Below are positions 3,192 through 45,791 of a DNA stretch of 64,000 nt, piece by piece. The stretch's first letter is position 1, and every line of letters starts with the position of its first letter. A model generated the notes under the pieces. It did no database searches. It was not told the origin of the DNA and saw nothing but the letters and a program-made list of their open reading frames with translations. The position numbers and the translations under genes were made by a program. The DNA is from an uncultured Gammaproteobacteria bacterium (lineage in GTDB: Bacteria; Patescibacteriota; Patescibacteriia; JAHIZJ01), in contig CAYJKP010000001.1 in assembly GCA_964371245.1 (NCBI GenBank), positions 315,042-379,041 of the forward strand, in the 5' to 3' direction.

Positions 3192-4193
3192 ATGGCGTTC
3201 AAACGCCCGAAAATCTGCCTCCTTTTCTGCGGCGGCTCGACTCTGGTCGGCCATGACAACGCTTTGATTGAGGTGACAAAAAAGTCGGATATTGAACCGT
3301 GGCTGGCGGAAGCCTCCGAGCTGGCAATTTTGGCTGACGTGCAGACGGTTTTTGTGTATGGCGACGACCGGAAAACCGTGGCCGTCGAAACCTGGATTGC
3401 GCTGGCGAAAGAAATCCAGAAGCGCTATCAGGCGTACAACGGCTTTGTTATAACGCATAATTTCGATTCGATCATCTATACCGGCGCGGCCTTGAGCTTT
3501 ATGCTGCGTAATCTTGGTAAACCCGTGGTTCTGACTGGGGCGCAAGAGACCGGTTCGGCCGGGCCAGCCATCGCTGATCGTTATCATGCGTTGGGAATAC
3601 GGGCGAATCTTATCAACGCGATCCAGGTCGCTACGTTGAACATTGCCGAAGTTGGCGTCATGTACGGCAATGTTCTCTTGCGGGCCACACAGGCGGTGCG
3701 TGCGGCCGGGGCCAAGGGCGAACTGACTGCCTGGCTCGGCGATAATTTAGGCGAAGTAGATTTCGGGATAAAGCTGTCCGAGCAGCGGCAACGCCGGCAA
3801 GGCAGCGCGCTGCTGCTCCGGCCGGCGATTGAAAAGGATGTGTTTATGATGCACGTGCATCCGGGTTTTGATCTCAAAACCAATCTCGAGCTCTTAAGCC
3901 CGGCGCTGAAAGGCGTGATTATCAGGGCGACTGACGTTATTTTGCAGCCGGAAGAATATGCGGTCCTCGAGGAATTCAGCGTGCGCCGGCGCAGCCCGGT
4001 TTTTCTCCTGGCCGATACCGAGGCGCCGATCCCGAAAAAAACAAAACTGATCGTGTTACCGCCGATGCTTCCGGAAATCGCCTTAACAAAGGTGATGTGG
4101 GCGCTCGGCCAAAACCATTCACGCACTGAACTCCGGCAGCGGATGAATGAAAATATCGCCCACGAAATTCTTATCCGGTCGGAAAAATCATGA
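3192..4193 (+). CDS. L-asparaginase/glutaminase-like protein with non-canonical active site
   Basis: asparaginase-like N-terminal CGGSTLVG (canonical TGGTIAG) and KPVVLTGAQ block; canonical hGTDTm replaced by HNFDSI, so catalytic threonines are substituted. Confidence 0.55.
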   Translation: MAFKRPKICLLFCGGSTLVGHDNALIEVTKKSDIEPWLAEASELAILADVQTVFVYGDDRKTVAVETWIALAKEIQKRYQAYNGFVITHNFDSIIYTGAALSFMLRNLGKPVVLTGAQETGSAGPAIADRYHALGIRANLINAIQVATLNIAEVGVMYGNVLLRATQAVRAAGAKGELTAWLGDNLGEVDFGIKLSEQRQRRQGSALLLRPAIEKDVFMMHVHPGFDLKTNLELLSPALKGVIIRATDVILQPEEYAVLEEFSVRRRSPVFLLADTEAPIPKKTKLIVLPPMLPEIALTKVMWALGQNHSRTELRQRMNENIAHEILIRSEKS

Positions 4194-14996: not shown

Positions 14997-15282
14997 GGGG
15001 AATCCCTCCAAGAGGTGACGGTCACTACAATCAGCGTGTTTAAGCACCGATGTCGTGTGTTACGCTTGGTCCTTTCGCGGGTCCTCCAATTCCCGAAAGG
15101 GTGTTGCCGTCGCAGAAACGACGGATTAGCGGGCATTGATACAAAACACTCTACTATAAGAATATCGACAAATTAAAGAGAAATCAAGTTTTTGTCAAGA
15201 CTTTTTTGATGCCGCCGGCATTTTACTTTCTTTTTCCGGCGTTTTTGATACAATGAAGGCAATAATACGTCATAATAATACT

Positions 15283-16080
15283 ATGGAAACACCAACCACT
15301 ACCGCCTTCGTCCAACCTGACACGCGCTTTCGGCGGTTGCGCACGTTTAATCTGGCCATGTTCGTTCTCCACCTCGGCCAGGGGATCGCGATGCTTATTT
15401 TGAGCAATGATTTCAGTGTGCCAGTCACGACCGCCTTTGTTGAATACAGCCGATCAGCCGGGAAGCTTGAGCCGGTACTCAACCAAATATTCAGTCTTAA
15501 ACTCGGTCCGTTGGTCGCCGGTTTTTTGTTTCTCTCGGCCTTGGCCCATCTCATGATCTCACTGCCACGGATCTACGACTGGTACGTCGCCAATTTGAAG
15601 CGCGGCCTGAACCTGGCGCGCTGGATCGAGTATGCCTTTAGCTCCTCGATCATGATTGTCGTCATCTCTATGCTGGTCGGAATGTACGATGGCATCAGCC
15701 TTATGTTCGCGTTTTTTCTTAACATGATGATGATTTTATTCGGCTGGGTGATGGAAGTGCACAATCAAACAACCCAGAAGACTAATTGGACGTCATATAT
15801 CTTCGGCTGTATCGCCGGCGCGATCCCGTGGGTGGGTGTTGCGCTCTATCTGTTTTTGTCAGGCAGCGGCAATGCCAAAGCGCCGACATTTGTCTATTGG
15901 ATTTTCTTTTCTATCTTTCTGTTTTTCAATGTCTTCGCAATAAACATGATTCTCCAGTATAAGAAAGTCGGGCCGTGGCGCGATTATCTCTATGGCGAGC
16001 GTGCCTATATCATCCTCAGCCTGGTAGCAAAGTCATTGCTCGCCTGGCAGGTCTGGGCCGGAACATTGCGGCCGGTATAA
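15283..16080 (+). CDS. heliorhodopsin (alternative upstream start at 15253)
   Basis: 7-TM; RWIEYAFSSSIMIVVI, ILFGWVMEVHNQT, FGCIAGAIPWVGVALY and YGERAYIILSLVAKSLLAWQVWAGTL (Schiff-base Lys in VAKS) match the heliorhodopsin family as recalled for HeR 48C12; TGATACAAT extended -10 at 15241-15249. Confidence 0.8.
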   Translation: METPTTTAFVQPDTRFRRLRTFNLAMFVLHLGQGIAMLILSNDFSVPVTTAFVEYSRSAGKLEPVLNQIFSLKLGPLVAGFLFLSALAHLMISLPRIYDWYVANLKRGLNLARWIEYAFSSSIMIVVISMLVGMYDGISLMFAFFLNMMMILFGWVMEVHNQTTQKTNWTSYIFGCIAGAIPWVGVALYLFLSGSGNAKAPTFVYWIFFSIFLFFNVFAINMILQYKKVGPWRDYLYGERAYIILSLVAKSLLAWQVWAGTLRPV

Positions 16081-28712: not shown

Positions 28713-28787
28713 CCGGAGTAGCTCAGTTGGTAGAGCAACGCTTTTGTAAAGCGAAGGTCGGGGGTTCGAATCCTCTCTCCGGCTCCA
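28712..28787 (+). tRNA. tRNA-Thr (anticodon UGU)
   Basis: cloverleaf: acceptor GCCGGAG/CTCCGGC, D-arm GCTC-AGTTGGTA-GAGC, anticodon loop TTTGTAA, T-loop TTCGAAT, encoded CCA. Confidence 0.8.
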
Positions 28788-28849
28788 GACGAACGTCACA
28801 AACCAAATCAGAAAGCCTGGCAAAAAGCTTTAAATAAGTTCATTGCTCA

Positions 28850-28960
28850 TATAAACTCACAAATCAGTAACAGTTGAAATAGCCAGTAAAACCAATAAAC
28901 AAATCAACTAATCAATCGATAAACCAATAAATCAATCATCTATTATTCTAATAAACCATC
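28850..28960 (+). repeat. CA/A-rich leader with repeated AACCAATAAA / AATCAA motifs upstream of rpmG
   Basis: seen in sequence. Confidence 0.4.
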
Positions 28961-29121: not shown

Positions 29122-29544
29122 ATGACCGACACGGATGCCCGCCATCCAGAGACCGGCACGACCTGGAAGGTCGTTGATGGAATAATTGAAATCCGCTTAG
29201 GCGCTGACAGCGCCAGTCATGAAGCGTCGGTCGGCGAGATGCTTTGGTTGGAAGAACTGCTGAATGGTTTAGATACGCAATTTCCAAACAAGCGCTGGGG
29301 GATCGCAATTGACTTTGGTCGCTTGCCGGTCCAACAGACGAGCGCCGCTCGATTCCGCTCGATGATGAGCTGGCTCTTGAAAGAGGCGAGTGTGGCCGCG
29401 CTTGCGATTGTTCAAGCGGCGCATTCGTATAAGGTGGTAATTCAGACGATTCTGTTCGCGCTGCCGGACGCGACGGGCAAGCTGAAGTTTTTTGAACAAG
29501 AAACCACGGCCAGCGAGTGGCTGAAGATTAAAACAAAAGGGTAG
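29122..29544 (+). CDS. hypothetical protein (possible STAS-like fold)
   Basis: ORF starts 3 nt after the rpmG stop; no firm motif. Confidence 0.4.
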   Translation: MTDTDARHPETGTTWKVVDGIIEIRLGADSASHEASVGEMLWLEELLNGLDTQFPNKRWGIAIDFGRLPVQQTSAARFRSMMSWLLKEASVAALAIVQAAHSYKVVIQTILFALPDATGKLKFFEQETTASEWLKIKTKG

Positions 29545-29556
29545 ATTTATTACCTG

Positions 29557-29580
29557 GGGGCGTAGTTCAGCGGTAGAACC
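29557..29580 (+). other. orphan tRNA 5'-half-like fragment (acceptor plus D-arm: GGGGGCG-TA-GTTC-AGCGGTA-GAAC), tRNA-Trp-like
   Basis: canonical acceptor/D-arm with no downstream anticodon or T-arm before the intact tRNA-Trp about 57 nt later. Confidence 0.45.
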
Positions 29581-29636
29581 CCGCACCAAGCGCACATTAT
29601 AAAATTCAATTATATTCTTGCTCGTCAGTTAGTGAT

Positions 29637-29711
29637 GGGGGCATAGTGAAATGGCTATCACAAAGGTCTCCAAAACCTTTATTCTAGGTTCGAATCCTAG
29701 TGCCCCTGCCA
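29637..29711 (+). tRNA. tRNA-Trp (anticodon CCA)
   Basis: acceptor GGGGGCA/TGCCCCT, anticodon loop CTCCAAA, T-arm CTAGG-TTCGAAT-CCTAG, encoded CCA. Confidence 0.8.
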
Positions 29712-29833
29712 CAAGCTGATGAGGATTGATATTAATATGCTTTGGTACGGGGCGATTCCCTCCGCTCCTGCCAACACAACCTTTTATCGAGCGACCCCCC
29801 AGTGCTTTTTAGAAGTTGTTATTAAAATAAGCC

Positions 29834-30436
29834 ATGCTTATAGATATTGTGATTCTACCTCCCAAAAAAATAAGTAAATTGATTGGTGATAAAATCAAAA
29901 AGGAGATTGGCAATCACCCAAATTATTTTGTGGTAGATAATGTCAAGCTTTTCTCTCATTTGAGTCTGTGGCATATGAAAATATCAAAGAAAGGAATAAA
30001 TATTATTGTTAAGAAGTTAAAACAGATAACCAAGGGTCAAAAACAGATTAAAATCAGCTCTTCAGGATTTCGCGCCCTAAAGAAATATCCTGGCTGTGTA
30101 GAATTTGAAGTAAAGAATAATAAAGATTTGACTCATTTACAACACAATATTTTCCAAAATATTTACTCTTATAAATCAGGCGTAATGCCGGGATTCGCGT
30201 CTTTTTTGAAGATCGTATATTCTGGTAAAAAACTACAAGAAATAAAAAATTACGGCAGGTCGATAGGATTTGCACCTCATTTTACAGTGGGATGGTTGAA
30301 AAATATTAAAGATATTCCAGTGGTTGTAAAGAAAATGAGAGAGATGAAATTTAGTTTTTTTGCAAAAGAAATATATATTTGCGAAATTGACAAATGGTGG
30401 CAAGTCAAAAAGATAATAAATAAAATTAGCTTTTAG
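29834..30436 (+). CDS. 2H phosphoesterase family protein (LigT/ThpR-like), very low GC (about 28%)
   Basis: two H-x-S/T-x motifs (FSHLSLW and PHFTVGW) at the expected spacing. Confidence 0.65.
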   Translation: MLIDIVILPPKKISKLIGDKIKKEIGNHPNYFVVDNVKLFSHLSLWHMKISKKGINIIVKKLKQITKGQKQIKISSSGFRALKKYPGCVEFEVKNNKDLTHLQHNIFQNIYSYKSGVMPGFASFLKIVYSGKKLQEIKNYGRSIGFAPHFTVGWLKNIKDIPVVVKKMREMKFSFFAKEIYICEIDKWWQVKKIINKISF

Positions 30437-30543
30437 CCCAGACCAACGTGTCTCAAATCGCGCTCTGGAAATATCGCTGAAAAACCCTTATAATCTTTGC
30501 GTGGGTGGGAAACTGAACAGGAGTGGCCTGCCATAATAAAAAG

Positions 30544-30570
30544 AACAGAGAATATTGCCTCTGTTTTTGT
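30544..30570 (+). terminator. intrinsic terminator (AACAGAG-aatattgc-CTCTGTT, T5)
   Basis: 7-bp stem followed by TTTTTGTTT. Confidence 0.5.
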
Positions 30571-30578
30571 TTATATAC

Positions 30579-30607
30579 TTGCGAAGATTGAAAAAATATG
30601 TTATAAT
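30579..30607 (+). promoter_or_regulatory. promoter TTGCGA-17-TATAAT
   Basis: perfect -10 and near-consensus -35, 35 nt upstream of ATG 30643. Confidence 0.5.
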
Positions 30608-30642
30608 AGATAAGTGAAGTATAATAAATAAATATACGACGT

Positions 30643-30912
30643 ATGGCAGAACAACTCGAACAGCAATACAAAGACCTCCTTTCAGAAATTATTGCCAAAC
30701 AAGCGATCATCCTTGGTCCTGACATTGCCGTGCTAAAAGCGCGGAGCGTGCCGGGTATTCAGGTAACAAATGATGGAAAGGTGTCGGGGATCGACGGCGA
30801 TCCGCAGCAGCTTATCCAGCAGTTGGTCGATAAGTATGTCGACCTGTCAGGCCAGATCGTTAAAAATGCGCTCGGGTCAGTTTTCGCGCGCTATCCAGGC
30901 ATACAAAAATAG
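30643..30912 (+). CDS. hypothetical protein
   Basis: ORF downstream of a good promoter. Confidence 0.45.
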   Translation: MAEQLEQQYKDLLSEIIAKQAIILGPDIAVLKARSVPGIQVTNDGKVSGIDGDPQQLIQQLVDKYVDLSGQIVKNALGSVFARYPGIQK

Positions 30913-30950: not shown

Positions 30951-31271
30951 ATGGAGACTATTGTGCGATCAATCATTCTTTTTGTCGGTTGGCCGGTTCT
31001 TGTCGGCGGCAGTGTCTATCTTTTTGTGCGCGGCCGGGCGGTGTATCGGCTCGTGAAGGGCTCGCTCGTTGGCAAAGTAACGAAGGTGCTGGTCATTTCC
31101 ATGCTCACTGGCATGTATTGTCTCGGCGTGGTGACGACCGTCTTAATGCTCAAGGACGAAAAAATGGTCTGGCTGGGCCTGCCCGTGTTTCTGATTTGGT
31201 TTGTGACGTTCGTCTGGAGCCTCCGCGTTCTGAATGAGGCGCAGCAAGAAGCGAAAAAGCTCACAAAATAA
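30951..31271 (+). CDS. small 3-TM membrane protein
   Basis: hydrophobic ORF. Confidence 0.45.
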   Translation: METIVRSIILFVGWPVLVGGSVYLFVRGRAVYRLVKGSLVGKVTKVLVISMLTGMYCLGVVTTVLMLKDEKMVWLGLPVFLIWFVTFVWSLRVLNEAQQEAKKLTK

Positions 31272-34179: not shown

Positions 34180-34617
34180 ATGGCCATTCGGGTCGCGGTG
34201 ATCGAGACGTGGGACGAGACGGATGTTCTGGAGGGCATGACGGCGCAGCAGGCACTGGCGGCGACCGGCGTGGAGTTCGATCCGGAGACCCAACGCCTGG
34301 TGAGCGCGAAGGACGGCGAGATCAAGCCGGATGCGATCGTCCAGGACGGCGACACCATCTTCGTCGAGGCGCTCGAGGGCGATGACGCCGATGAGGTCGT
34401 CGACGACGAGGCCGATCCGGGCAAGAAGACCGGTGACGACGCGGTGGTCGACGAGGCCGATCCGGGCAAGAAGACCGGTGACGACGCGGTGGTCGACGAG
34501 GCCGATCCGGGCAAGAAGACCGGTGACGACGCGGTGGTCGGCGAGGCTGGCGCGGGCGGCGGAGGCGGCGAGGCCGTCGAGGCTGCGGCTGGCGGAGCCG
34601 GGGCTGCGAAGGAGTAG
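34180..34617 (+). CDS. ThiS/MoaD-like beta-grasp domain protein with acidic tail containing 3 perfect 15-aa tandem repeats (DEADPGKKTGDDAVV), about 68% GC
   Basis: AGGGAGGAGGG RBS; ...IVQDGDTIFV resembles the ThiS/MoaD C-terminal strand but lacks GG; 45-bp perfect tandem repeats. Confidence 0.55.
   Translation: MAIRVAVIETWDETDVLEGMTAQQALAATGVEFDPETQRLVSAKDGEIKPDAIVQDGDTIFVEALEGDDADEVVDDEADPGKKTGDDAVVDEADPGKKTGDDAVVDEADPGKKTGDDAVVGEAGAGGGGGEAVEAAAGGAGAAKE
34405..34539 (+). repeat. 3 perfect tandem copies of a 45-bp coding repeat
   Basis: GACGAGGCCGATCCGGGCAAGAAGACCGGTGACGACGCGGTGGTC x3. Confidence 0.9.
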
Positions 34618-38181: not shown

Positions 38182-38826
38182 GTGGATAATGTCTTCGCCG
38201 TTTATAAGCCCGTCGGTCCGACCTCAAATGATATCCTCGAGGATATCCGTCGTCGCACCGGCATAAAAAAAGTCGGCCACGCTGGCACGCTCGATCCACT
38301 CGCCAGCGGCGTTTTAATTGTGGCCATCGGCCGCGACGCGACGAAGCGACTTTCGGCGGAGGTGGCCAAGGAAAAAGAATATCTCGCCACTATCCGGCTT
38401 GGCGAGGAAAGCACGACCGACGACGCGGAGGGCGAAAAAACGAAGCAGGCAATCGAAACGCCGCCGAGTCGTGAGCAGATCCAAGAAATTCTGCCACAAT
38501 TTGTCGGTCAGATCGAACAGACGCCGCCGAAATATAGCGCCATAAAAATTAAAGGTCGAGAAGCCTATAAATACGCCCGCCAGAATCAAACCGTTGTCTT
38601 GGAGCCGAGAATGGTCACGGTAAAAGAAATTACGTTGGTTTCGTATGCCTGGCCAGACGTCGTCTTGCGCATTGTCACCGGACCGGGCGTGTATATTCGT
38701 TCACTGGCCAGGGATCTTGGTCGGGCACTCGGTGTGGGTGGCTATATTTCCGCTTTGGAGCGGACACGGGTGGGGGAGTTTACAAAAGATCAGTGCGTCG
38801 ATCCCGATCAAATAACGGTACGCTAA
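38182..38826 (+). CDS. truB: tRNA pseudouridine(55) synthase (GTG start)
   Basis: VFAVYKPVGPTSNDI...VGHAGTLDPLASGVL TruB catalytic Asp motif. Confidence 0.85.
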   Translation: MDNVFAVYKPVGPTSNDILEDIRRRTGIKKVGHAGTLDPLASGVLIVAIGRDATKRLSAEVAKEKEYLATIRLGEESTTDDAEGEKTKQAIETPPSREQIQEILPQFVGQIEQTPPKYSAIKIKGREAYKYARQNQTVVLEPRMVTVKEITLVSYAWPDVVLRIVTGPGVYIRSLARDLGRALGVGGYISALERTRVGEFTKDQCVDPDQITVR

Positions 38827-38831
38827 CACAG

Positions 38832-39554
38832 ATGACACAAATATCCATATTTGATAATATGAAACCGTCTATGAATGAAAAAATGATCCGGCTTTCACCG
38901 AGTACAGGGTTGAATCTTTACCGCGAATGTCCGCGCTGTTTTTGGCTGCACCATAACAAAGGTATCCATCGGCCGCGCGGAATATTCCCATCCTTGCCCG
39001 GCGGGATGGATCTGGTGATTAAAGACTACATGGACAGCTTCCGAAAACGCGACACCATGCCGCCTGAACTCGCCGGACAGGTTGAAGGAAAATTAATGAC
39101 TGACCTAGTCTTGATGAATAAATGGCGCAATTGGCGCACCGGCATGGAATATAAAGATACTGCGATGAACGCCGTTCTTTTCGGCGCGCTTGACGAATGC
39201 CTCTTTGATAATGGCACGTACATCCCGCTTGATTATAAAACGAGGGGGAGTGCGCCAAAAGAGGGGGACTCAGAACGGTATTATCAGACCCAGCTCGACG
39301 CCTACACCTTGCTTTTATCTGAAAACGGTTATCCGACAAAGAATCTCGCCTATTTGCTGTACTATTTTCCTCACGAAGTCAAACAAAACGGTGAAGTAAC
39401 ATTTCGAACCAAGGTCATTCGTCTGAGCACTGACGTCGCCCGCGCCAAAAAATTGTTCAGCGAAGCGGTGCGGGTGCTGCGCGGAGCAATTCCGAAACGG
39501 CACAGCAACTGCGAGTATTGCACCTGGAACCACAGCCTCAATGAATTTGATTAA
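38832..39554 (+). CDS. PD-(D/E)xK nuclease, Cas4/RecB-like with Cys cluster (orphan, no CRISPR nearby)
   Basis: N-terminal CPRC, D...LDYK(T) core, C-terminal CEYCTW Cys cluster. Confidence 0.6.
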   Translation: MTQISIFDNMKPSMNEKMIRLSPSTGLNLYRECPRCFWLHHNKGIHRPRGIFPSLPGGMDLVIKDYMDSFRKRDTMPPELAGQVEGKLMTDLVLMNKWRNWRTGMEYKDTAMNAVLFGALDECLFDNGTYIPLDYKTRGSAPKEGDSERYYQTQLDAYTLLLSENGYPTKNLAYLLYYFPHEVKQNGEVTFRTKVIRLSTDVARAKKLFSEAVRVLRGAIPKRHSNCEYCTWNHSLNEFD

Positions 39555-45368: not shown

Positions 45369-45791
45369 ATGAGCCAAATTTCCTTCTACGAAACTAAGTA
45401 TTATATGTTTTCAAATTTTTCAGCGCACGCGGTCGAGTACCGCGGCGATTTGTTTATGACGGCGGAACACGCCTACCAAGCGGCGAAATTCGACGACTTC
45501 GCTATAAAATCCGAAATACAAGCGGCCCGGAGCGCCTACGCGGCAAAAGAAATCGCCCGTCAGCATAGAAGTAAGCGTATCTCAAACTGGGATCAAAAAA
45601 AGGTTCAGATTATGGAAGAAATTATTCGGGCTAAATACCGTCAGCATGGCGACGTGCAGAAAGCATTAAAAGAATCGGGTAATGAAGAAATAATTGAAAA
45701 TTCTCCAATCGACTCATTCTGGGGCGCGGGCGCCGATGGTAATGGCAGAAACGAGCTAGGTAAAATATGGATGAAGCTGCGTCTAGAATAG
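45369..45791 (+). CDS. NADAR-domain protein (YbiA-like)
   Basis: FSNFSAH...TAEHAYQAAKF...SFWGAG...LGKIWMKLR blocks. Confidence 0.7.
   Translation: MSQISFYETKYYMFSNFSAHAVEYRGDLFMTAEHAYQAAKFDDFAIKSEIQAARSAYAAKEIARQHRSKRISNWDQKKVQIMEEIIRAKYRQHGDVQKALKESGNEEIIENSPIDSFWGAGADGNGRNELGKIWMKLRLE

Follow-up and report, generated by a model that had tools for sequence, protein, structure and literature searches.

How does the front end of a tRNA gene come to stand alone, a short distance ahead of a complete gene for tRNA-Trp, and what kind of event leaves such an arrangement behind? The question is raised by a tRNA-Trp locus in a stretch of DNA of 64,000 nt (the window) from an uncultured bacterium placed in the Patescibacteriota, in agreement with the source names of its closest homologs, contig CAYJKP010000001.1 of assembly GCA_964371245.1, positions 315,042 to 379,041 of the forward strand. 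An earlier reading, made from the sequence only, had described an orphan tRNA 5' half, an intact tRNA-Trp gene and a low-GC gene for a 2H phosphoesterase in succession, and had explained them by ancient integration and excision at tRNA-Trp; on its own, such a tRNA scar beside a foreign gene would be ordinary. In comparison with related genomes, the intact gene is seen to lie between the two ends of another tRNA-Trp gene, and the presence of the same gene-in-gene layout in relatives suggests a tRNA-targeting mobile cassette of an apparently undescribed kind, a limited literature search having returned no description of nested or interrupted bacterial tRNA genes of this layout, nor a parallel among the tRNAs of the candidate phyla radiation or among intervening sequences in tRNA. 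In what follows, W denotes the locus of the window, and L numbers denote related loci.

The tRNA-Trp locus of the window

The orphan piece (GGGGGCGTAGTTCAGCGGTAGAAC) consists of 24 nt, the 5' strand of an acceptor stem followed by a D-arm, and is present as had been described, though at positions 29556-29579 of the window, one base upstream of the interval first given for it (29557-29580). Neither ARAGORN nor Rfam called a tRNA from this piece, even at E<=10, and nothing tRNA-like follows directly on its 3' side. Exactly 57 nt past it begins a complete, canonical and intron-less tRNA-Trp(CCA) gene (29637-29711), as the sequence-only reading had stated, which was recognized by both programs, reaches 65.1 bits on the Rfam tRNA model (gathering score 29), and is of the same type (A-type) as the un-nested tRNA-Trp genes of L145 and L146. 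Fourteen independently assembled contigs of the same species, some of them 0.9-1.2 Mb long and assembled from different samples, carry the locus in identical form or with a 2-base difference (L006), and a search for strain variants among them found none; the arrangement is therefore not an assembly artefact, but real and fixed in the population.

The orphan piece is not a chance match, because it is identical at 22 of 24 positions to the tRNA-Trp 5' ends of L150 and of L017 and L019, and because a partner 3' remnant lies 173 nt downstream. That partner, CGATTCCCTCCGCTCCTGCCA at 29753-29773, resembles a tRNA 3' end more closely than any other sequence in the region downstream of the intact gene. 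It agrees with positions 56-76 of the L150 tRNA-Trp at 18 of 21 positions and has the canonical T-loop residues CGATTCC. When its acceptor strand (CGCTCCT) is set against the orphan GGGGGCG (29556-29562), every one of the seven pairs forms. Pair 7-66 of this outer gene is G-C, as opposed to A-T in the inner tRNA-Trp, so that the two pieces are the ends of one gene, other than the intact one. This older gene is GC-richer, and its D-loop carries the canonical GG. Added together, the two outer pieces come to 45 nt in W and to 58 nt in L019, and they are without the 3' strand of the anticodon stem, the variable loop and the 5' strand of the T-stem; since positions 38-55 are gone, the outer gene is dead. 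An intron, with the fragment as an exon, was considered and rejected, in agreement with the earlier view of the fragment as a remnant: ARAGORN and Rfam returned a contiguous, intron-less tRNA-Trp in place of a single intron-containing one, no group I intron matched in Rfam at E<=10 on W 29400-30700, L019 or L017, and the outer pieces lack everything from position 26 (W) or 38 to position 55. It is well supported that the orphan fragment represents the 5' end of an older tRNA-Trp gene of the G-family, and that this gene, whose 3' end is 29753-29773, was split by a short segment, bounded by inverted repeats, with a complete tRNA-Trp in it.

The segment between these remnants is 173 bp long (29580-29752) and ends in terminal inverted repeats, CCCGCACCAAGC on the left (IR-L) and GCTTTGGTACGGG on the right (IR-R), the core of which (CCGCACC...GGTRCGG) is conserved in four loci. 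No target-site duplication was seen at the junctions, where 18 nt of the target were lost instead. The comparison was one of loci, copy counts referring to the 64-kb window, in which the repeat core occurs as one copy pair only. A likeness of the repeat region to XerCD dif sites, judged by eye, was dropped as unconvincing.

The fold predicted for 29550-29785 has an energy of -81.2 kcal/mol (z = -4.4) and carries the tRNA cloverleaf on the tip of a stalk, and by this prediction the inner tRNA would sit at the end of a long stalk in a transcript or in single-stranded DNA. The helix closest to the tRNA, formed by CTCGTCAGTTAG and CAAGCTGATGAG (29621-29632 with 29712-29723), leaves TGAT unpaired just 5' of tRNA-Trp; the corresponding helices of W, L017, L019 and L148 differ in sequence and keep their pairing. 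The nest region of L019 folds to -103.7 kcal/mol (z = -7.3), and z for the whole-region fold amounts to -4.4, -7.3 and -3.5 at the nested loci. When the duplex of leader and trailer was scored against shuffles, z was -5.0, -6.5, -2.95 and -3.0 at four nested tRNA-Trp loci, and -1.8 to +0.4 for six un-nested tRNAs of the same genomes. Strong leader-trailer pairing is thus found only at nested tRNA-Trp loci, from which it follows that the stalk belongs to the insert, and a stalk as a general feature of pre-tRNA processing was rejected on the strength of the six un-nested tRNAs without one. The nested loci share with intervening sequences (IVSs) of rRNA the combination of an insert in a structural-RNA gene and ends that form a long stem.

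Nests and other tRNA-targeted insertions in relatives

Contigs of relatives were reached through the four protein clusters of a 140-aa open reading frame (ORF) upstream of the locus, and wider relatives (L145-L150) through rpmG. In L017, a sister species whose ortholog of this ORF is 86% identical, collinearity with W runs up to W29533 and resumes from W30577, with flanks of 89-90% identity (blastn), and W 29534-30576 is without collinear homology, its 1043 nt being replaced by 1944 non-homologous nt that hold a tRNA-Trp of an odd-elbow type, described below, and a gene for prolyl-tRNA synthetase (ProRS). Only two small matches cross this gap, that of the W 5' fragment with the 5' end of the inner L017 tRNA-Trp (92%), and that of W29740-29776, IR-R plus the 3' remnant, with L017 6631-6667 (86%). 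Since the latter is at flank-like identity and the inner tRNA and spacers are unrelated, the nest predates the split of W and L017. The inner content was later exchanged in one of the two lineages, probably that of W, because the odd-elbow type is present in each of L017, L019, L148 and L020.

The L019 locus (140-aa ORF ortholog 69% identical) is a mirror image of the W nest. Its outer 5' piece is identical over 38 of 38 nt to positions 1-37 of the intact A-type tRNA of W and runs on into CCGCACCGAAAGAGCG, a complete odd-elbow tRNA-Trp of the G-type (57.1 bits) between CCGCACC...GGTGCGG repeats is followed by CGCTCTCTGGTGCGGGA, and the outer 3' piece is identical over 19 of 19 nt to the A-type tRNA of W from C56 (positions 56-74). 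Outer and inner tRNA types are reciprocal, G outside A in W and A outside G in L019. In L148, the decisive locus, two nested shells with matched acceptor halves surround an inner odd-elbow tRNA-Trp (3381-3454). The acceptor halves of shell 2 read GGGGGTT and AACCCCC, the unusual TT/AA pairs matching each other; its 5' piece (GGGGGTT..., 3283-3306) continues to CCGGTCTCCAA at 3331-3341 and then CCCCGCACCG, and its 3' side is made of CCGGTGCGGGG and then CGATTCCCTCAACCCCCGCCA (3517-3537). Shell 1, with the halves GGGGGTG and CGCCCCC, has a 5' piece at 3197-3229 that ends inside the anticodon loop and a 3' piece that extends from AAAACCGG to CGCCCCCGCCA (3627-3706). Elsewhere at the L148 locus (2239-2411), a complete tRNA-Thr(TGT) gene (2280-2355) is set cleanly in the D-stem (positions 23/24) of another tRNA-Thr gene, which is broken a second time at the T-loop; the flanks of the nested gene are visibly complementary (CGCCAAAG/CTTTGGCG), although scoring against shuffles gives their duplex a z of -0.62, which is not significant.

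The four nested tRNA-Trp loci (W, L017, L019, L148) have in common an outer 5' piece that ends after position 37, with alterations in W and L017, an outer 3' piece that begins with C56, and a conserved repeat core, CCGCACC/GGTGCGG; the segment between the outer pieces measures 173, 181, 176 and 174 nt. The W outer 5' piece is 13 nt short of the L148-like sequence GAAC-ACCGGTCTCCAAC-CCCGCACC, and the outer 5' part of L017 is eroded. Un-nested genes are found in wider relatives: L146 and L147 have rpmG, 40 nt, an A-type tRNA-Trp and then RluA-DivIC-SurA, and L150 has a G-type tRNA-Trp with a canonical elbow, the type that the W outer pieces resemble. Since each of two types stands un-nested and as the only tRNA-Trp behind rpmG, the A-type in L146/L147 and the canonical G-type in L150, both are genuine tRNA-Trp genes of this genome group; the different types share identical stretches of 13 nt and 9 nt. 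Scans for further nests were made in three collections. In metagenomes, a 31-nt junction pattern recovered the L017 locus again and nothing else, in a genome collection the degenerate 18-mer YTGGTRCGGGRCGAWTCC gave only chance matches in unrelated phyla and was uninformative, and in viral contigs nothing was returned for the A-type 5' half, the G-type 5' half, the odd T-arm, or IR-R with the 3' remnant.

The odd-elbow tRNA-Trp(CCA) is complete in L017 (6505-6578), L019 (1294-1367) and L148 (3381-3454), and its start only is present in L020 (1216-1242). Its D-loop, AACAGTA, is without the conserved GG, and its T-loop reads CGCGACA, CGCAACA or TGCGACA, compared with TTCGAWT in the canonical form. 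The genes score 56-62 bits on the Rfam tRNA model, and the L017 copy (56.4 bits, T-loop CGCGACA) forms a full cloverleaf. Between the inner tRNAs of L017 and L019, a compensatory change from T-A to C-G has occurred in the anticodon stem and the flanks have diverged far more, which argues that the odd-elbow gene is under selection as a tRNA. Three of four sequenced relatives carry it, and it may be the sole tRNA-Trp of those genomes. Of the three complete copies, two, that of L017 among them, escaped ARAGORN, a standard tRNA finder, and genomes of this kind would therefore look as if they had no tRNA-Trp; orphan tRNA fragments such as the one in W can likewise be mis-scored by tRNA finders. The gene is a testable oddity for RNase P, TruB, the ribosome and the CCA-adding enzyme.

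The idea of recombination at tRNA-Trp in the earlier reading is supported, tRNA-Trp being a hotspot of it; other tRNA-targeted insertions are present in the same clade. In L145 (4184-4610), a tRNA-Trp 5' fragment (positions 1-43), broken by two GC-rich palindromes (CCAGCC...GGCTGG), is followed by an 81-aa GIY-YIG ORF and then by an intact A-type tRNA-Trp; tblastn with the L145 protein found nothing in W, L017, L019, L020, L148, L149 or L150, so that the ORF is seen in L145 only. In L149 (4835-4986), a 110-nt insert that is absent from the otherwise collinear L150 (2313-2400) stands in the 3' end of tRNA-Trp between perfect 21-nt direct repeats of tRNA-Trp positions 54-74, and is a classic attachment (att)-like footprint with no gene inside. 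Genes of family PF05635, the 23S rRNA intervening sequence protein (IVP), stand beside tRNA-Thr/tRNA-Trp loci in L019 (205-555) and L020 (794-1165) by Pfam; the two copies occupy different positions beside these loci, are 76% identical and have a common, conserved 28-nt downstream tail, and therefore behave like a movable cassette. A motif related to those of the nests, CTGGTGCGGGAT, stands directly behind tRNA-Thr in both L019 and L020, and is followed there by a degenerate 3' remnant of tRNA-Thr. A tblastn search of the window with the L019 IVP found nothing.

Three smaller observations belong to the same loci. An ORF that follows the nested tRNA-Thr of L148, at about 2596-2968, reads by eye like a member of PF05635, and tblastn with the L019 IVP gave no match to it. 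In L145 (3792-3961), a tRNA-Thr(TGT) copy that scores 44.9 bits in Rfam, and in which the foreign hairpin CCCCGCC-ACG-GCGGGG replaces the T-arm, directly precedes a canonical tRNA-Thr. Behind tRNA-Thr(GGT) as well as behind tRNA-Trp of L145 there is a repeat of about 150 nt.

Nested replacement as the probable explanation, and its alternatives

Nested replacement by a recurrent site-specific cassette, with 29556-29773 as a tRNA gene inside a tRNA gene, is in our judgement the probable explanation of these loci. The older tRNA-Trp gene, of the G-family and with the canonical elbow seen in L149/L150, was split by the 173-bp insert, which carries the complete tRNA-Trp(CCA) that presumably now serves as the functional gene; the ancestral left junction would have been after position 37, W having since lost about 13 nt more. 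The agent would be a cassette, small and non-autonomous, that is either moved by functions supplied in trans or propagated through homology-driven repair; the resident tRNA-Trp would be destroyed by it and a copy carried on the cassette put in its place. We infer recurrent, site-specific replacement from the reciprocal outer and inner types, the double nesting of L148 and the constant junctions, which fit accident and drift less well than a cassette. The pieces and their homology, the junctions, the stalk and the recurrence are observed directly, as are the identity and foreign composition of the 2H gene, whereas mobility itself, a direction of transfer, the involvement of an enzyme, and the standing of the inner gene as the only functional tRNA-Trp are inferred.

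Several points weigh against this reading. Neither the Pfam scan of about 50 larger window ORFs nor tblastn with the L145 GIY-YIG protein or the L019 IVP found a recombinase, transposase or homing endonuclease, and no recombinase domain was present in 9 neighbouring and about 40 further window ORFs or in the existing Pfam annotation of the locus. The insert has no target-site duplication and one copy only in the 64-kb window, the four known nested tRNA-Trp loci all belong to one small clade, and the metagenome scan added no nest to them beyond that of L017. The appearance of repeated insertion could also result from one ancient nest whose outer or inner parts later underwent gene conversion. 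The comparison covers loci, and further tRNA-Trp genes may lie elsewhere in these genomes. The left junction of W is at 25/26 as opposed to 37/38 elsewhere, which is explained by a secondary deletion of 13 nt, and the complementarity of the outer acceptor strands is expected by descent and says nothing on function.

The explanation first proposed, that an integrase inserted an island at tRNA-Trp and part of it was excised, with the 2H gene on the island and the fragments as att scars, is unlikely in our view, even though tRNA genes are the usual targets of islands, low-GC cargo follows directly after the tRNA 3' end, and the 21-nt direct repeat of positions 54-74 around the 110-nt insert of L149 is a textbook example of such an event. 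The 3' remnant also starts at C56 of the T-loop, a known sublocation of integrase crossover, as Williams reportedly described in 2002. However, an integrase leaves 3' duplicates downstream of an intact gene, without an upstream 5' fragment or a complete second tRNA between the halves, so that a complete tRNA between halves on a stalk, with the same junctions in four species, is left unexplained, as are the inverted repeats that form the stalk and the matched shells of L148. No integrase was found in the window ORFs scanned, the genuine 3' remnant stands before the cargo and is of another tRNA type than the intact gene, and IR-R with the 3' remnant is common to L017 while the cargo differs. The repeat proposed as the right end of the island, AGTGGCCTGCCA at 30522-30533, is present where it was reported, but the match with the tRNA 3' end is at chance level: 31 of 1000 composition-matched shuffles of the 931-nt region equalled or beat its score, another site ties with it, and L017 has no counterpart. 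A history without any mobile element, in which tandem or segmental duplications of tRNA-Trp decayed through random deletions and gene conversion, appears similarly improbable. It would agree with the likeness of L145 to a partial tandem duplication (positions 1-43, ORF, full gene), with independent small deletions in the outer 5' pieces of W and L017, and with conversion supported by the stretches of 13 and 9 nt that are identical between tRNA types. Tandem copies, however, lie head-to-tail, and no 3' end of a first copy would be expected downstream of a complete second one; junctions at 37/38 and 55/56, a repeat core and a near-constant insert length in four species are unlikely to arise by random deletion, and the outer and inner genes are different tRNA types, native to different lineages.

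Very unlikely, finally, is a functional RNA architecture in which the outer halves and stalk would act as a processing scaffold for the inner pre-tRNA (e.g. an RNase III stalk of the sort found around rRNAs or in rRNA IVSs), or the outer halves would be spliced or ligated, possibly with the help of the 2H enzyme. The folds are very stable (z to -7.3), helices are kept by compensatory differences between species, PF05635 genes adjoin tRNA loci in L019 and L020 (Pfam) and apparently in L148 (by eye), and a 2H enzyme is encoded next door, which the sequence-only reading had offered as a hint of tRNA repair. Against this, the outer exons cannot form a tRNA, positions from 26 or 38 to 55 being absent in every case. 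Group I introns gave no match, as noted above; an archaeal-type intron or split tRNA is opposed by exons that do not rebuild the cloverleaf and by predicted folds in which no bulge-helix-bulge was seen by eye; and bacteria are not known to have the splicing endonuclease. The length of the outer 5' piece is not constant and the piece is in decay, and the un-nested tRNAs of the same genomes have no stalk. The repair hint loses its ground in that 2H orthologs elsewhere are not linked to tRNA-Trp, and the L017 nest has no 2H gene.

Returning to nested replacement, a more specific form of it can be put forward only tentatively, and we would not expect it to hold in all its parts: ORF-less Patescibacteria cassettes of about 175 bp, bounded by inverted repeats, may home into the cognate tRNA gene between position 37 of the anticodon loop and position 56 of the T-loop, destroy the resident copy, carry a full replacement that makes them harmless, and shuffle tRNA-Trp alleles horizontally between lineages, the widespread odd-elbow allele possibly being immune. 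Homing-type logic would fit, as positions 38-55 are absent from the occupied allele and the tRNA that is carried has a different T-loop, and successive invasions would give Russian-doll tRNA genes. The changes from GG to CA in the D-loop and from TTCGATT to YGCRACA in the T-loop could mark an allele that is immune to whichever enzyme recognizes T-loop DNA, and if so, a bacterial elongator tRNA would be working without the universal G18-G19/T54-Psi55-C56 elbow. The GIY-YIG gene of L145 and the neighbouring PF05635 genes are leads only as possible drivers. If the cassette model is true, bringing a whole spare gene would be a third way for selfish DNA to live in an essential RNA gene without harm, beside the two known ways, self-splicing and restoration of the 3' end only, and single-copy tRNA genes of the very small Patescibacteria genomes would be exchanged horizontally, leaving a readable stratigraphy.

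The nests share features with five known systems and differ from each. Integrative elements that target tRNA genes likewise leave a partial tRNA copy, supply tRNA sequence that makes up for the damage, carry foreign cargo beside it and have one junction in the T-loop; they supply the 3' part only, however, leave 3' duplicates downstream and encode an integrase, whereas in the nest a complete tRNA is supplied, the resident gene is split into 5' and 3' pieces with loss of positions 38-55, and the insert, which ends in inverted repeats, measures no more than about 175 bp and is not accompanied by an integrase. The IVSs of 23S rRNA are also short inserts in a structural-RNA gene whose complementary ends form a long stalk, and PF05635 genes lie beside the tRNA loci of L019, L020 and apparently L148. 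An IVS, however, replaces a hairpin tip and the rRNA stays functional as fragments after excision by RNase III, whereas the nest destroys the host tRNA and its insert carries the presumably functional gene; W also has no IVP ORF. Elements based on homing endonucleases (group I introns in tRNA anticodon loops, free-standing GIY-YIG genes such as that for SegB in a tRNA cluster of T4) resemble the nests in having their site in or next to the anticodon loop and in the loss of the target from the occupied allele, as well as through the L145 GIY-YIG ORF between a tRNA-Trp fragment and an intact gene, and differ from them in that the nests show no ribozyme (Rfam), that W, L017, L019 and L148 have no endonuclease gene, and that neutrality comes by a spare gene, not by splicing. 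Miniature inverted-repeat transposable elements are alike in size (about 175 bp), in having no ORF and in terminal inverted repeats with a conserved core, but the nests show neither target-site duplications nor dispersed copies, and carry a presumably functional tRNA gene that is apparently specific for its cognate tRNA gene. The disrupted tRNAs of archaea and red algae (split, permuted or multi-intron) also have halves separated by sequence with pairing flanks, but those halves are rejoined via a bulge-helix-bulge, whereas the halves of the nest are short of 18-30 nt and the host is a bacterium.

The 2H phosphoesterase gene and the surrounding window

The gene that follows the 3' remnant (Table 1) has a GC content of 30.2%, close to the value of about 28% first estimated, within a window of 49.7%, and a GC content at third codon positions of 31% as opposed to 54-64% in neighbouring genes, in accord with the earlier view that it is compositionally foreign. 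On sequence motifs and a predicted structure, its product is identified as a member of the 2H phosphoesterase family, as had been proposed. It contains the motifs HLSL (residues 42-45) and HFTV (149-152), of which H42, S44, H149 and T151 are invariant in 22 homologs (31-78% identity); PF13563 is found in 20 of these 22 and PF02834 in 17, and all 36 homologs retrieved come from Patescibacteria where the source is named. The window protein itself has no Pfam match at E<=0.1. The family profile matches YjcG of B. subtilis (PDB 2D4G) with E=1.3e-3 across both motifs, and an AlphaFold model (pLDDT, the predicted local distance difference test score, 94.2; pTM, the predicted template modelling score, 0.90) shows the bilobed alpha+beta 2H fold and has 2H enzymes as almost all of its top 40 Foldseek matches in the PDB, led by 2D4G (E=1e-8), 1VDX and 1JH6, with likenesses to YjcG, archaeal 2'-5' ligase-like proteins, a plant cyclic phosphodiesterase and LigT of E. 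coli.

Elsewhere, orthologs of the gene come after one for inositol monophosphatase, in the vicinity of ATP synthase or translation genes and not close to any tRNA-Trp, and the 12-kb L017 locus has no 2H gene although the nest is present, ProRS standing in the same slot. For these two reasons the gene reads as cargo, separate and recently acquired, in a variable slot just 3' of the remnant; IR-R and the 3' remnant are common to L017 while the cargo differs, and cargo and nest are therefore separate events. The expectation that secE-nusG should follow tRNA-Trp was not borne out in any of the six related loci examined: L017 has ProRS at this place, L019 a protease of the subtilase family (Peptidase_S8), and L149 and L150 unannotated ORFs. 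The Pfam scan found neither secE nor nusG among about 50 larger window ORFs, those below about 140 aa, such as a typical secE, being mostly unscanned.

Table 1. Features of the tRNA-Trp locus and its downstream flank (window coordinates)
Feature	Position	Strand	Basis
Outer 5' remnant, tRNA positions 1-25	29556..29579	+	22/24 against tRNA-Trp 5' ends of complete genes in relatives
Left inverted repeat IR-L, CCCGCACCAAGC, left edge of insert	29580..29591	+	
Leader half of tRNA-proximal helix, CTCGTCAGTTAG	29621..29632	+	Pairs with 29712-29723 (fold, duplex test)
Inner A-type tRNA-Trp(CCA), presumably the functional gene	29637..29711	+	ARAGORN, Rfam
Trailer half of tRNA-proximal helix, CAAGCTGATGAG	29712..29723	+	Fold, duplex test
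Right inverted repeat IR-R, GCTTTGGTACGGG, right edge of insert	29739..29751	+	
Outer 3' remnant, CGATTCCCTCCGCTCCTGCCA: T-loop C56, T-stem 3' strand, acceptor 3' strand, discriminator G, CCA	29753..29773	+	
Predicted 200-aa 2H phosphoesterase (LigT/YjcG-like), directly after 3' remnant	29834..30436	+	Motifs, homologs, AlphaFold/Foldseek
Proposed degenerate att repeat, AGTGGCCTGCCA, probably a chance match	30522..30533	+	Shuffles
Terminator-like hairpin and T-run, closing the 2H gene	30541..30568	+	
Collinearity with L017 resumes; promoter-like TTGCGA-17-TATAAT for an 89-aa gene	30577..30607	+	

Some further features of the window were recorded. The 140-aa ORF through which relatives were reached (29122-29544, between rpmG and the tRNA-Trp locus) has no Pfam match and forms four clusters at 90% identity in 5.8 billion proteins, and it defines the small clade that carries nests. 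A 42-nt inverted repeat (28781-28822 / 31180-31221, 93% complementary), also present in L017, brackets the block of rpmG, tRNA-Trp and 2H gene (2357 nt); one arm begins within the final 7 nt of tRNA-Thr, the second is contained in a 106-aa ORF (30951-31271), and either an inversion or an event targeted at tRNA-Thr could have left the repeat behind. Between tRNA-Thr and rpmG, a spacer of 176 nt holds an A-rich tandem repeat of 32 nt (2.2 copies, 28889-28958) that is conserved in L017. In the ORF at 34180-34617, a 45-nt unit is repeated 3.2 times at 98% identity (34404-34547), giving a 145-aa protein with an acidic DEADPGKKTGDDAVV repeat, and nowhere else in the flank shared with L017 is conservation as low (84%). 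At 38182-39554, the gene for TruB, the tRNA Psi55 synthase, is directly followed by an ORF for a PD-(D/E)XK nuclease, with which it overlaps, a NADAR-domain protein (45369-45791) comes just after tRNA-Pro(CGG), and a heliorhodopsin gene lies at 15253-16080 (PF18761, E=4e-97).

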